A program made the position numbers and the translations under genes. The notes beneath the pieces are model-generated. The model had not been told where the DNA came from. It worked only from the letters and a program-made list of their open reading frames with translations, and ran no database searches. 64,000 nucleotides of DNA from Microthyrium microscopicum (taxonomy: Eukaryota), in NCBI GenBank assembly GCA_010405405.1, contig MU004243.1, forward strand, positions 181,340 to 245,339, in the 5' to 3' direction. Position 1 is the first letter of the stretch. Every line of letters starts with the position of its first letter. This document shows positions 28,630 to 51,503 of this stretch, piece after piece.

Positions 28630-30364
28630 CTACTTTGTGTCAATCTCACGCTTGATCAGAGTACAGAAGCTCTCAAACAATACCACATCGAATCCTTTGA
28701 GCCATCTTAGCGACACGTGGTGCTGATCAACTTTAATCTTGACAATCAATGCGGGCTCCACATCCTCTGTCATGGAGGTATCGTCTTCTGTTTCGTCATG
28801 CGCTTCATCAATCTCCATCTCATCACCTCTTGGCTTCTTTGATGCCTTGCGCGCACGCTCTCGCCGTGCTGCTCGAGACCATGTATTCTTCTTTGCCCCT
28901 ACCATGCCTGCCCAAAGTTCCTGTTTCCACATCCAGCGCACGTCCAGCTCGCCGATTAATTTGTTGAGCAAGTCTGCCAATTCGATGTTTGAGAGATTTG
29001 GTGCGCTTATTGAGAATTCCGTGGGAAATGGGAGCACGTTTCTCGTCGGAAGGTCGCATCTTGCCACATCCTATGACACTTGTTAGCAAGTTTCGACTGG
29101 ATTTCGAGTATCAATGCTGTTGGGAATGACTTCATAATCGGCATCGGGTTTCCCAATACTAATGCCATGGATTGAAAACCCGTGCCATTTCCAATGCCAA
29201 AATTCTCCAAAAATAAACCAATAGGTGCCGTCATAAGCCATATATCAGATCCTCGAGTAAGAGCACACACGGCAAATTCCACGGGTACTTACATTTCGTG
29301 GTCTTAAATCTCCCCAGCTCCAACCAACTACCCACCTCTTCGTTTTCCCATGCGTTCTCAACGTATTGACCGCCCAATTCTGACACTCCAACTTCTTCAA
29401 CTGAGCAACGACTTCGCTTACACTGCTGAGTTTACCCAACATACTCGTATACCACTGCACTTTAGTACCTAGCTCTTTACTCTCGACAACCATCCTACAA
29501 ACATAGGCAGCATCACCACCTTCTGTGATCATCTCCACCTCAGCGCCAGTACAGACGGCAGACGGCGGAGTCCCTTTCTCGTGCGTGGCGAGCATCTCGC
29601 TGCGTGAGGCGAAGAATGGTGGATTGCACATAGTGAAGTCAGCTTGTTGGACGTTAAGCTTGGCGAGTGGGAAGAGGCGGTCAAGTTCGTTGGTTTTGAG
29701 CAGTCGAATACGTGGGCCTAGCTCGTTGAGCGAGATGTTCTTTTGGGCGTAGTCGAGATTGGTTTGGTCAATGTCTGTGCCATAGAACCGCCAGCTGGGC
29801 CGAGCCACTGTGCCTAAGAGTGGATATATACAGCTTGATCCAATACCACTAGTAAGAGCACCATGTCAGATAGATTTCCAGATAGGGTGTCGAAGGACTT
29901 ACACGTCAATGCCTAAAACTTGACGTTCTGGGTTAAACTTATCAGAGAAGCTCTCATGAGAAGTATCAAGCAGTGCTTGAATCCAGCTGATATACGCATA
30001 ACTAGCACGTCGGTTAGTTCAGAACAATTCATTTAGCGCATGAAAACATACCGACCGGGAACCTGTTCTCCATTAACAATTCGGATATCATAACTCGATA
30101 GTCAGAAATCCATCAACGAATTTCCATGCTCTTGTGGAATCATACCGGAGGACATAAGCGATTATTGGGGAGTTCCAGCTTTAGACCAAAGTCTCTCATG
30201 AGTAGGCACTTGGTCAGTTGCATGACATGCTTCGGATTTTTCCAATTCATTGTGCCATCGTTCAGTACTAGCAACTTCTTGAACTCGGGGTCAATTTTGA
30301 CTAAATTGTTAAAGTCGATTGACTCTTCATAATTCGGCTCTTTCGAGAGCGCTGGTGGCGCCAT
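28630..30364 (-). CDS. METTL16: METTL16/RlmF-family m6A methyltransferase (U6 snRNA methyltransferase-like), multi-exon
   Basis: Motifs DFGLKLELPNNRLCPPV, GIDV.GIGSSCIYPLLG, DFTMCNPPFF, WYTSMLGK and RWVVGWSW. Confidence 0.88.
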
Positions 30365-30959
30365 CTTTGGACCTAACAATGTCTATAGCATGCGTGTTAA
30401 ATGAACTTTGAGATGGAAGTTCGGGAGTTGTTAAGAGGTGCAGCATTCCCACCTTGATATTGGGCTGCATGGGAGCCAGCGAAGCAATACAATTCATCAC
30501 GTGATGATGTCAATTGCATGTGCTGGATATCTTTTTCTCTCGGCGTGGTAATGATTAGCAGTGGGCATCTAAGAAGCTTCTAATTGCAGGGAGGAATCAG
30601 AGTATGGTTGTTAATACTAGTAGTGCTTGAAGTGGCCAATACCAAGTTCAAGTCCACGTCCAATATCAAATCAATTCCAGTCTGTCTTGACTACAGAAAC
30701 AGTCTCTCCAACTGCCATATGGGTATCTCGCAAGAGTAATATATACAGCTGGACATTATAAATTTTTCAGGAAGGTCTCCTCCACGATACGCAAGAAGCA
30801 GTCGCACTCGTCAATAAGCTTTGCAAAAAGCCTGGTCAAGAGTGCCCGACCACGTTACGAACAATCAGACTGTGCGCGTACATATGCTGGTGTGATATAC
30901 TGCAAAAGGAATGTAAAAATCAAGTGCTGCGTAGACGTCATGAGAGAATTTGATGCATG

Positions 30960-48620: not shown

Positions 48621-49443
48621 ATACATACTATTAATTTACATTTATATTTACATTTAGCCATAGTCCACTCATGATTAAGACCAAAATAGCTTATACTAAA
48701 TATTAGTCAGTGGCCTTATGAAATCTAATATACTTTCTTAAGATCCTACCTTTCAACTAATTGCGATATTTAAATCTACAACATATAAATAAAACATGAA
48801 ATAAAATATTGGGACGCCGGTATAGAATCGCTTCATTCCACGAAACAGAGGCTTTCGATCCTTCAATGCGAGACTGAGCCTAGTACTCTAGAAGACATTG
48901 AGGTAATCTTGCCCAAAATTGAAATAATATGTCAACCTTTCCAGGATTACCACGAAATGGCAACCCCATGGGGATATGCGCACAGACCATCCAGAATTTT
49001 GATGTCACTTCACCTGTTGAACTCGACCCTGCTTCCTGATCCTCGACATCTCACTCTCTAGTCTCTTCGGTTCAATGCACACCTGGGTGCCTAGAATCCT
49101 CTAATATATGTCACCAACTGATCATACCACACCTAGAACCTCTTTGAGGCCTAGCTCTGACCGCCTCGCCTGGTCACTTTTGCCGCCTCTGTTCCTAGCA
49201 CTCCATATGCGACCAGATCGCTAAGAACAGGACATGTCCAGCCTCTATCACGCCTTTGCCTCATCTCGAGCTAGCCAGGGTACCCATATTCACTTGCTGC
49301 AACTTCTCAGGTCAGTTATCCCTCCCGAGCCTTACTCTTCAAGCTTATCTCTACTGTAGCGAAACTCGGGTACAATACCATATGCCCACCGGATAAATTT
49401 TGTGACTTGGCAAAATCCTTTGCTACCATCGGGGTAACTGATC

Positions 49444-50703
49444 ATGTCAGTCGAGATCCAATGGGAGACCTTGACTGGCGGGCCTGAAGGAGAAAAGCTG
49501 GCCGAGTCTATCCGACAATTCATCCACGACAGATTCCAGACTATTCCGCTTCCCCGGTTTATTCATTCTGTCAAAGTACTAGCGTTCAACTTTGGAGATC
49601 AGCCACCACAAATTGAAGTCAAGGATGTCTGTGACCCTCTGCCCGACTTTTACGAAGAAGACGATGATGATGCACGGAGTGCCCACAGCAATGCCAGCCA
49701 AACCACCGACGAACGAATCCGGGAGAAAGGCACTGCTCCCGCCTCAGGGGTCCCTGGCTCATCTGCAAATTCCCAGCAGCGTAATAGCAACTTCGAAGAC
49801 AACCTCAATGCGGCTGGAAATCTCCATCACAGAGGAGAAGTGCGACATGGCCACTCATTGTCAGCTCATATACCAGCTGCGCAACCATCTCAGCGACCAA
49901 TATCACTAACCCATCCCCTGGATATTACCCTTCCAAGCCCACGATTCTCATCTGGTATTCCAGGCGGCACTACCAATCTATCATACTTCCACCATCATCC
50001 ATATGGTAGTGCAGGCCCGACCACCCCCCTGGCCGCTATGGCCGGCGGGCATTTCACCATGCCCGACCGGCCTACCCATCAGCATTCCACCTCCATAAGT
50101 TCAAGCACTCCGCCCTCTTCAGCGGATCCACCATCCCGTCCGCCCTCGCAACACCAGTCACCAGCCAGTAATCGCTCATCTGCCGCTCCCACTGTCGACC
50201 TTTCCCACTTAGCGTCAGAGCGCGCAACTTCACCAGCACCACCGGAACGTAATCCTGACGACCTCCAAGTAGTTGCTCACGTGCGCTATCACGGGCCTAT
50301 GAGTCTAGTCGTCACGGCTGAAATACTGCTCGACTATCCAATGCCCAGCTTCGTTGGCATCCCATTAACGTTGCACATAACTGGCTTTTCATTTGACGGT
50401 GTAGCCATAGTGGCGTACATCAATCGCAAAGTGAGCTGCTGTTTTCTATCGCCGGAAGACGCCGTGACAGTGATAGGAGCAGGTGGAACGACGAGCGAAG
50501 ATGGTGGCGAGCAGGAAGAGCAGAGAGGCCCGCTAGGTGGGCTATTAGAAGAAGTGCGCGTGGAGAGTGAGATTGGGCTCAAGGATGGGGGCAAGCAAGT
50601 GTTGAAGAATGTGGGCAAGGTTGAAAAATTTGTCTTGGACCAAGTAAGACGCATTTTTGAGGACGAGTTTGTCTTTCCTAGCTTCTGGACATTTTTGGTC
50701 TAG
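49444..50703 (+). CDS. MDM12: ERMES complex subunit Mdm12 (SMP domain)
   Basis: MSVEIQWETL..IHDRFQTIPLPRFI, DVCDPLPDFYE, LDYPMPSFVGIP, VLKNVGKVEKFV and FVFPSFWTFLV. Confidence 0.95.
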   Translation: MSVEIQWETLTGGPEGEKLAESIRQFIHDRFQTIPLPRFIHSVKVLAFNFGDQPPQIEVKDVCDPLPDFYEEDDDDARSAHSNASQTTDERIREKGTAPASGVPGSSANSQQRNSNFEDNLNAAGNLHHRGEVRHGHSLSAHIPAAQPSQRPISLTHPLDITLPSPRFSSGIPGGTTNLSYFHHHPYGSAGPTTPLAAMAGGHFTMPDRPTHQHSTSISSSTPPSSADPPSRPPSQHQSPASNRSSAAPTVDLSHLASERATSPAPPERNPDDLQVVAHVRYHGPMSLVVTAEILLDYPMPSFVGIPLTLHITGFSFDGVAIVAYINRKVSCCFLSPEDAVTVIGAGGTTSEDGGEQEEQRGPLGGLLEEVRVESEIGLKDGGKQVLKNVGKVEKFVLDQVRRIFEDEFVFPSFWTFLV

Positions 50704-51082
50704 AATGTATGCATCAAAGGTTACTACTAAGTACCTCTTAGGACCTTTACTGGTGGAGAAGTTGAAGAATTATACCACCTCTTTGTACTTATGCACATAA
50801 ACCGGTGTACTTTTCACGAACTTTTGTCAAAACCAAACCTTCAAATAGATTTATCACATACATGTTCATTCTAGCTCCTATGAAATAAAGTATACTACGT
50901 GACCATGTAGATTTGCCCCACAGTATCATTTATCTAACCACTAAAAAATGAGAGCCACATTGTTTTAGCAGGAGGTGTTCCGTACCTGTAGCGCATATGG
51001 TCATATACCTACGACTATACTCCACATAACTCGTTCAAAAAAAAGCCTTTTCACATCATGATTCAGAAGCATACATGCAGCC

Positions 51083-51090
51083 AAAAAAAA
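51083..51090 (-). terminator. T8 run, putative Pol III terminator of the tRNA gene
   Basis: Eight Ts on the minus strand, 25 nt after the discriminator base. Confidence 0.6.
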
Positions 51091-51156
51091 CAGAAATGTC
51101 GAATTGACAGATTTTTGACTTGTGCAGGGATCGAACCTGCAATCTCTTGATTCGTA

Positions 51157-51212
51157 CTATGAAATAGTGTTAATAACTGCGTTATTTAAGAGAGTTTGAG
51201 GTGCTAAATTAC
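51157..51212 (-). other. 56-nt GT-AG spliceosomal-type intron in the tRNA anticodon loop (position 32/33)
   Basis: GTAATT...TATTAAC..TTTCATAG. Confidence 0.8.
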
Positions 51213-51240
51213 GTCAAGCGCCTTGCCATTGGGCCAACAA

Positions 51241-51293
51241 CAGAAAGGATGTCAGTAGCTGCGTATTAAACGGAGTTTGAAGTGTCAACTTAC
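51241..51293 (-). other. 53-nt spliceosomal-type intron in the tRNA acceptor stem (position 3/4), ending in TG
   Basis: GTAAGT...TACTGAC ATCCTTTCTG. The upstream GGC is required to complete the acceptor stem. Confidence 0.7.
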
Positions 51294-51388
51294 GCCATGC
51301 GAAAATTAATGATTTTACTCAAGTTGTGAGGGCTAATTTGCATAGTTTGTTATATAACTAACGGGTTTGCACTACATTTCTTTGTAGT

Positions 51389-51503
51389 TTTGCATAACTT
51401 TTCACGCTTCTGCACGATTCTTCACGAGTCTATATTGTTCTTCAACGACTTTGTATTGTTCTTCACAAGTTTGCATTATTCTTCACCGCTCTTTATTGTT
51501 CTC
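51389..51503. repeat. ~20-bp degenerate tandem repeat, about 5.7 units
   Basis: Units such as TCTGCACGATTCTTCACGAG, TTTGTATTGTTCTTCACAAG and TTTGCATTATTCTTCACCGC. Confidence 0.75.

Follow-up and report, generated by a model that had tools for sequence, protein, structure and literature searches.

Introduction

To our knowledge, the introns of tRNA genes are taught as a class apart, excised by a protein endonuclease at position 37/38 or at a bulge-helix-bulge, and never by the spliceosome. This report concerns a tRNA-Arg(ACG) gene that is split by two short inserts with spliceosomal-type signals. It lies at 51116-51296 on the reverse strand of a 64,000-nt stretch of Microthyrium microscopicum DNA (contig MU004243.1 of assembly GCA_010405405.1, positions 181,340 to 245,339), which was analysed as a whole and is called the window below; positions are counted from its first letter. 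Our reading, to which we assign a probability of roughly 0.55, is that this is a nuclear gene of an ascomycete-like fungus, with exons of 3, 28 and 41 nt and two paralogous short introns of the spliceosomal type.

Several described systems come close to this arrangement. Among the cases listed in PMC5855946, spliceosomal introns are known from the genes for U6 small nuclear RNA (snRNA), which RNA polymerase III (Pol III) transcribes, in Schizosaccharomyces pombe and Rhodotorula, from the U1, U2 and U5 snRNA genes, and from ascomycete ribosomal DNA (rDNA). Reverse splicing is discussed in the same source as an origin of introns in non-coding RNA genes. In fungal protein genes, same-gene duplications (SGDs) of introns have been catalogued by Collemare, van der Burgt and de Wit (2013, PMC3609843), with a count of 82 members across 24 species; as summarised there, half of them have duplicated exon flanks, and transposition within the same transcript was suggested for the rest. 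Introner-like elements, as characterised in that article, are multi-copy, longer than regular introns and stably folded, and old ones decay to a regular-looking form (PMC3609843). Those of Dothideomycetes and other fungi are described as multiplying spliceosomal introns that insert precisely, with neither terminal repeats nor target duplication (PMC3609843, PMC4457414). A literature search for spliceosomal introns in tRNA genes, outside which most subscription journals lay, found no paper, and a term search for the stem 'spliceosom' in a review of tRNA introns (PMC4090602) returned nothing.

An Arginine tRNA Gene in Three Exons

In its interrupted form, the gene is missed by ARAGORN and Rfam. 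ARAGORN reports no tRNA in the 64-kb window as it stands, and in default mode it makes zero tRNA calls on the unspliced gene or when just one insert has been removed; once both inserts are taken out by script, it calls tRNA-Arg(acg). The interrupted gene gives no match in Rfam either, and a search of Rfam at a permissive threshold yields no tRNA, only two chance rows for bacterial small RNAs. The T-arm motif of the gene is the sole one in the window. The parts of the gene and its flanks, all on the reverse strand, are as follows, in the direction of transcription.

51116..51296, reverse strand: three-exon tRNA-Arg(ACG) gene with its discriminator A at 51116, called by ARAGORN after removal of the inserts
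51350..51357, reverse strand: TTATATAA, candidate TATA element from reading of the sequence, 54-61 nt upstream of exon 1
Directly 5' of exon 1, reverse strand: leader, ending in CGCAT, from reading of the sequence
51294..51301, reverse strand: CGCATGGC, the last 5 nt of the leader plus exon 1, which resembles CGCTTGAC (51220-51213), the 8 nt before insert 2
51294..51296, reverse strand: exon 1, GGC, tRNA positions 1-3, placed by the 7-bp acceptor stem with ACAAGTC
51241..51293, reverse strand: insert 1, 53 nt, at tRNA position 3/4, with GTAAGT start, branch-like CTACTGAC (51258-51251) and CTG end
51213..51240, reverse strand: exon 2, 28 nt, comprising acceptor positions 4-7, the D arm and the 5' strand of the anticodon stem to C32
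51236-51226, reverse strand: A box, TGGCCCAATGG, within exon 2
51157..51212, reverse strand: insert 2, 56 nt, at tRNA position 32/33, with GTAATT start, branch-like TTATTAAC (51176-51169) and ATAG end
51116..51156, reverse strand: exon 3, 41 nt, comprising U33, the anticodon ACG, the 3' strand of the anticodon stem, the variable loop, the T arm, the 3' acceptor strand and the discriminator A
51137-51128, reverse strand: B box, GGTTCGATCC, within the T arm of exon 3
51083..51090, reverse strand: run of eight T (T8), from reading of the sequence, 25 nt past the discriminator, a probable Pol III terminator (T runs terminate Pol III)

The exon boundaries are held in place by the acceptor stem, in which exon 1 contributes G1-C72, a G2.U71 wobble and C3-G70. 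Shifted junctions and other choices of exon 1 were tried by hand and rejected: a shift of +1 or -1 breaks pair 3-70 or 4-69, and no AG-ended junction restores the stem.

Related genes were gathered by scanning metagenome contigs with the U33-to-T-stem portion of the window gene, the 3' strand of the anticodon stem being left free. The scan gave at least 118 loci, with 120 matches listed; counts drawn from it are lower bounds, and the same organisms recur across samples. Among the matches listed, each of the 14 uninterrupted sequence variants has G2 and T71, and 13 of the 14 have G1-C72. The 24 nt of exon 2 that cover positions 8-32, a part that the search pattern left free, are those of the commonest uninterrupted metagenome form; when positions 39-43 are added, all 29 nt that were free in the search match that form. 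TATA-like runs are found about 30-45 nt upstream of position 1 in the related genes, both uninterrupted and interrupted.

Relatedness of the Two Inserts

A global alignment of insert 1 with insert 2 has 40 identities in 56 columns and a score of 21 (71% identical, about 29% divergence). The same 40/56 had been counted by hand in the first-pass annotation of this DNA, which called the two introns homologous, and the two strings and the coordinates quoted there are correct. Not one of 2000 interior shuffles of insert 2 reached a score of 21, the shuffle maximum being 15. Introns of the window itself provided a second control. Thirty-eight candidate mRNA introns were picked by their splice signals and by open frames on both sides, some of them false positives inside open reading frames (ORFs), and the 27 candidates of 44-72 nt make up 351 pairs. 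Their maximum score is 12, so that none reaches 21 (z about 4.6), and the insert pair exceeds all of them in this comparison with random intron pairs, which the first-pass annotation had proposed. When the first 6 and the last 20 nt are stripped and the interior alone is aligned, the score of the insert pair is 10, and the highest among the 351 window pairs is 2. Because the shuffle, window-pair and stripped-interior controls are all exceeded, the relatedness is real and extends beyond shared splice signals. The shared interior blocks that lie outside the classical splice signals are CAC.TCAAACTC and AAT(A)ACGCAG.

The insertion sites are GGC^TTGT and GAC^TACG, both of which read GRC^T. This agrees with the earlier description of insertion after a C and before a T, and target duplication, said there to be absent, is seen at neither site. 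The further statement that the flanking exons are unrelated holds in part. Under two scoring schemes, the local alignment of the inserts starts 8 nt before both donors and fades before the 3' ends, and the 8 nt upstream of each donor (CGCATGGC and CGCTTGAC) are identical at 6 of 8 positions; downstream of the two inserts, the alignment shows no flank similarity. The simulated chance of a flank extension of that size is about 0.02, or 0.05 after three tRNA-constrained positions are conceded. This is a weak hint that a copied unit may have included the 8 nt upstream of the donor.

Spliceosomal Anatomy of the Inserts

The inserts resemble the ordinary introns of the window. Many of the window candidates are 47-59 nt long and of the form GTAAGT..CTAAC..YAG, and the two inserts, at 53 and 56 nt, match that length. 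Insert 1 has the donor GTAAGT and insert 2 has GTAATT, which is without the G at +5; the donor consensus used here, GTAAGT/GTATGT, is the fungal one and draws in part on the window candidates. Branch-like motifs of the CTRAY type are present in both, with the A 11 nt from the 3' end in CTACTGAC and 13 nt in TTATTAAC by hand count. Insert 2 ends in TAG, and insert 1 ends in CTG and so has no AG. The predicted folds are weak, with a minimum free energy of -3.5 kcal/mol for insert 1 and -1.5 kcal/mol for insert 2. The positions of the inserts, 3/4 and 32/33, are unlike the 37/38 of the eukaryotic tRNA endonuclease. Taken as a whole, these features suggest that the inserts are introns of the spliceosomal (mRNA) type with two blemishes, namely the CTG end and the missing donor G+5.

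Interrupted tRNA-Arg Genes in Metagenomes

Inserts of the same general kind recur in related genes. Three of the 120 matches listed are too near a contig end, leaving 117 that can be assessed. Uninterrupted tRNA-Arg(ACG) genes account for 108 of the 117; a sequence rule gave 106, two more have a different D arm, and ARAGORN also gave 108. The remaining nine (L004, L005, L038, L052, L055, L066, L087, L104 and L116) are interrupted, and as L104 has the same sequence as L038, they represent eight distinct interrupted genes among the matches listed. Their inserts are 46-54 nt long, start with GTAAGT, GTAAGC, GTACGT, GTATGT or GTATGA, have a motif of the CTAAC, TTAAC, CTAAT or CTGAT type close to the 3' end, and finish in CAG, TAG or AAG. 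Seven positions are used: 6/7, 17/18 (four loci), 19/20, 25/26, 27/28, 65/66 and 66/67. After removal of the inserts, ARAGORN calls tRNA-Arg(acg) in seven of the eight distinct genes, the eighth, L052, being cut by the contig end. One gene, in L055 (about 470-760, +), is doubly interrupted, with introns at 6/7 and 65/66, one on each strand of the acceptor stem. We infer that the metagenome contigs are fungal, because their tRNA body is identical and their introns are of fungal style.

The intron at 17/18 is common to three diverged relatives, L038/L104, L066 and L052. Their exons are invariant and the donor, branch site and CAG are kept, while the interior of the intron and the flanking DNA have drifted apart. 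In L060/L091 and L088, this tRNA variant (GGGCGGC...GTCGCTC) has a similar TATA region and trailer and no insert, and the gap in these loci relative to the carriers is exactly the GT..AG unit. This points to a precise gain or loss of the 17/18 intron, the loci being either orthologues or paralogues. The conservation of the 17/18 intron suggests that such inserts have been long tolerated in working genes and are therefore removed from RNA, for which we regard it as strong indirect evidence.

Two side observations were made on the same loci. At L009:100-175 (-), and at the same place in L047, a degenerate tRNA-Arg-like fragment, probably a pseudogene, is found at a distance of about 480 nt from an intact tRNA-Arg gene; the fragment has kept its T arm, shows decay throughout the 5' half and is free of any GT..AG insert. 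Many uninterrupted loci (e.g., L001, L010, L013 and L021) have long 3' trailers of 30-40 nt, in which a T run of the CTTTTGC type is often preceded by a short hairpin; this seems to be a trailer style conserved within this group of fungus-like contigs.

Genomic Surroundings

The neighbouring genes are fungal, and encode Stb3, Ada3/Ngg1, a fungal glucuronyl esterase and an SMP/MMM1-like protein, the gene for the last being at 49438-50703, with the tRNA locus downstream of it; the Ada3 protein falls among Ascomycota clusters (Atlas). Logan contigs from three DNA runs of one sample, which is probably the source of this DNA, contain the stretch without any difference and are not independent support for it. 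Among sequencing runs, the stretch was matched by four DNA entries of that sample and by no RNA entry. In each of the three DNA runs a single contig, which spans the stretch and has no joints, covers 51000-51420 at 80% likeness, and one possible RNA run yielded none; as short matches may escape this comparison, it does not bear on expression or on further copies. Upstream of the tRNA gene, TTATATAA is followed 10 nt further on by ATGCAAAT (51320-51357, -); either may be due to chance, and both are more distant from position 1 than the TATA-like runs of the related genes. Farther upstream, 120-200 nt from the gene, there is a tandem array of about 4.2 copies of the 20-nt unit TTCTTCACGACTCTGTATTG, with 75% matches (51418-51502).

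Alternative Explanations

The alternative that survives best, an unlikely one in our judgment, takes up the mobile introner-like family suggested in the first-pass annotation: the inserts would belong to a dispersed family that multiplies across the genome and made two independent landings in this tRNA gene, perhaps because it favours genes for tRNAs or Pol III genes at large. That the pair is clearly related, precisely placed and free of target duplication would suit such a family, and since ascomycete introner-like elements are reported to decay to ordinary-looking introns (PMC3609843), old members could resemble the inserts. Searches for further copies speak against it. No third copy was found in the 64-kb window, where a search that allowed at most 3 mismatches to the consensus of the pair gives 11 matches when 8.3 are expected, and none of these but the inserts themselves is good. 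A 29-letter consensus of the pair that includes the donor had 0 matches in a scan of metagenome contigs, and an nhmmer profile of the pair, run against the window and the at least 118 tRNA-Arg loci, returned just the two self matches as significant. Ten other distinct tRNA-Arg introns of the GT..AG type, among the matches listed, are unrelated to the pair, their best score against either insert being 11. The inserts are also no longer than regular introns and are unstructured, and it is unlikely that a single gene of 72 nt would be hit twice independently if the family did not target it. The idea of a mobile family thus found no backing in the window, the metagenome contigs or the related loci, which hold only two copies, both in the same gene. 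In the data searched, the relatedness of the pair appears to be special to this gene, being neither general to tRNA-Arg introns nor the visible sign of a family.

The next nhmmer match after the two inserts, at window positions 30375-30415 (-), reads CATCTCAAAGTTCATTTAACACGCA and weakly resembles the interior of the inserts. It is the one candidate for a further family member, but with E = 0.58 it is not significant and is taken as chance. A methyltransferase-like gene that has an NPPF motif (ORFs 30140-30382 and 29245-29865) probably starts just downstream of it, and the match is not within a clear intron.

Returning to the pair as spliceosomal introns copied within a working gene, several observations weigh against that reading. 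Among the matches listed, the CTG end of insert 1 is unlike the AG of the other distinct tRNA-Arg introns (10/10), and the GTAATT donor of insert 2 is unlike theirs, which have G at +5 in 10/10; each of the two window introns is thus faulty in one core signal, which would be in keeping with a gene in decay. Insert 1 pushes the 3-nt exon 1 about 55 nt upstream of the A box, so that A-box-guided initiation by Pol III might fall inside insert 1, which has TTTAATA about 27-33 nt ahead of exon 2. As for clear TATA elements, the nearest one (51350-51357), at 54-61 nt upstream, is farther away than in related genes. The longest T run in each insert is 3 and neither has 4 T, but avoidance of T runs is uninformative as a sign of passage by Pol III, as the longest runs are of 2-4 T in the 12 tRNA introns and of 2-4 T in 20 window candidates alike. 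As for the copying itself, the flank similarity is weak and post hoc (p 0.02-0.05), and the two introns of L055 are mutually unrelated (score -4).

Some of these points would equally suit a dead tRNA gene, a decaying relic that owes its intron-like appearance to history or accident and in which the inserts are not excised at all, or insert 1 has ceased to be. The TG end of insert 1, the lack of G+5 in insert 2 and an exon-1 geometry that is awkward for Pol III all lean this way. Genes for tRNA-Arg(ACG) are normally multi-copy, so one copy could be dispensable. We consider a dead gene distinctly unlikely, because the exons are intact and 29/29 unconstrained positions match the commonest form despite the 29% divergence of the inserts. 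Since the inserts differ to that extent while positions 8-32 and 39-43 equal the commonest form, the exons appear to have been under selection while the introns drifted; had the gene been dead since the duplication, this match and the full pairing of its acceptor stem would be expected to have gone. Moreover, the boundaries restore the conserved G1-C72 and G2.U71 exactly, and the equivalent interrupted genes have canonical signals, one of them conserved across taxa. On this evidence, the introns would have been spliced for most of their history. That insert 1 is still removed has roughly even odds; the tRNA-Arg gene may splice poorly or may have died recently, and a recent death is compatible with our best explanation rather than opposed to it.

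Convergence, in which the shared blocks would be demanded by a common function (recognition, or a promoter-like role as for TTTAATA/TTAAATA) without shared descent, is very improbable. It would account for the position of the blocks CAC.TCAAACTC and AAT(A)ACGCAG outside the classical splice signals, and the TTTAATA of insert 1 sits where a TFIIIB site is expected if the A box guides initiation. However, among the matches listed, the blocks occur in 0/10 of the other distinct tRNA-Arg introns, which score at most 11, and the similarity is collinear over the whole length including the flank, which is the pattern of common descent. Hardly credible at all are bulge-helix-bulge introns for the tRNA endonuclease at non-canonical positions, as in red-algal, nucleomorph or archaeal tRNA genes, the lineages from which multiple odd-position tRNA introns are known (PMC4090602, PMC3978253): in a hand check of the junction sequences neither junction pair could be drawn as a 3-4-3 bulge-helix-bulge, the introns have almost no structure, and among the matches listed together with the window pair 12/12 introns start with GT, 11/12 end in AG and all have a CTRAY-like branch motif, none of which the endonuclease needs.

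Proposed Origin and Working of the Pair

We propose that Pol III would start from the A/T-rich DNA upstream of the gene and stop at the T8 run, giving a precursor of about 200 nt. The spliceosome would remove both introns, with GTAAGT and GTAATT as donors and an A located 11-13 nt from the 3' end as branch point, and RNase P, RNase Z and CCA addition would then complete the tRNA.

As to origin, one intron would have been copied from the other inside the tRNA-Arg gene, i.e., by same-gene intron duplication, and the copies would since have diverged by about 29%. On present evidence, such a duplication seems to fit the pair better than a mobile family does. The likely direction is from 32/33 to 3/4, with a copied unit made up of the last 8 nt of exon 2 plus the intron. 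This direction is suggested because the copy seems to carry 8 nt of exon 2, which now serve as leader and nucleotides 1-3, and because the sequence before insert 2 is canonical in all relatives, whereas that before insert 1 consists of free leader plus a G-G-C that is derivable from G-A-C. The copying may have followed either of two routes. One is a templated copy at the DNA level, at the short GRC^T homology; the other is transposition inside a single transcript, which would then have been reverse-transcribed with some template switching. Either route would yield precise junctions such as those seen, and reverse splicing or transposition within the same transcript is possible. A tandem duplication of the whole of exon 2 plus the intron was considered and rejected, the 20 nt upstream of CGCATGGC being unlike exon 2 by eye. 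Because the two introns of L055 are unrelated, duplication would not be the general route by which a tRNA-Arg gene comes to be interrupted.

In a wider form, our explanation is that spliceosomal introns colonise Pol III-transcribed tRNA genes across ascomycete-like fungi, where they are long kept, precisely gained or lost, and missed by standard finders, and that the window gene holds a copy of one such intron at a second site. We would put the chances for and against this wider explanation at about equal.

Significance

If the inserts are spliced, the spliceosome acts on tRNA precursors in some fungi. Counts of tRNA genes made with standard finders would then be too low, as ARAGORN and Rfam both missed the window gene, and in such genes initiation by Pol III would have to lie well upstream of the A box. 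The result would amount to a further, undescribed way of interrupting tRNA genes, together with a trace of intron transposition in which each junction can be checked against the cloverleaf.

The duplicated pair would also be a rare clean case for the study of spliceosomal intron gain, as source and copy are 28 nt apart. Because the host is tiny and fixed by its function, and source and copy lie so close together, reverse splicing and DNA-level copying predict different flanks here. The more surprising results are that the host is a tRNA gene and that unrelated introns of spliceosomal type recur in this tRNA on other environmental contigs.

Comparison with Known Systems

The introns of snRNA genes and rDNA collected in PMC5855946 share with the window inserts the GT..AG ends and branch site, a place in structural RNA genes outside the mRNA class transcribed by Pol II, and varied positions. 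The window case is unlike those cases in that its host is a tRNA gene, a class absent from the list given there, in that its two introns are mutual copies, and in that it is known here from DNA alone. Like the SGDs of PMC3609843, the pair consists of two related introns in one gene, and both of the routes suggested for SGDs in that article fit it; unlike them, being near-identical introns of mRNA genes as described there, the pair is 71% identical, resides in a 72-nt tRNA gene and has a flank matching at 6/8. With introner-like elements, as portrayed in PMC3609843 and PMC4457414, the inserts have in common the spliceosomal type, precise insertion and the lack of target duplication, and they differ in the two copies found, the regular length and the lack of a stable fold.

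A further comparison lies outside the spliceosomal world. In 2010, Fujishima et al. reportedly found related introns at different tRNA positions in Thermoproteales and read them as the product of transposition into tRNA. Those transposed introns have a bulge-helix-bulge and depend on the archaeal endonuclease, whereas the window inserts have spliceosomal signals and no such structure. The Thermoproteales introns are the closest analogue of the present pair in logic, though not in machinery.

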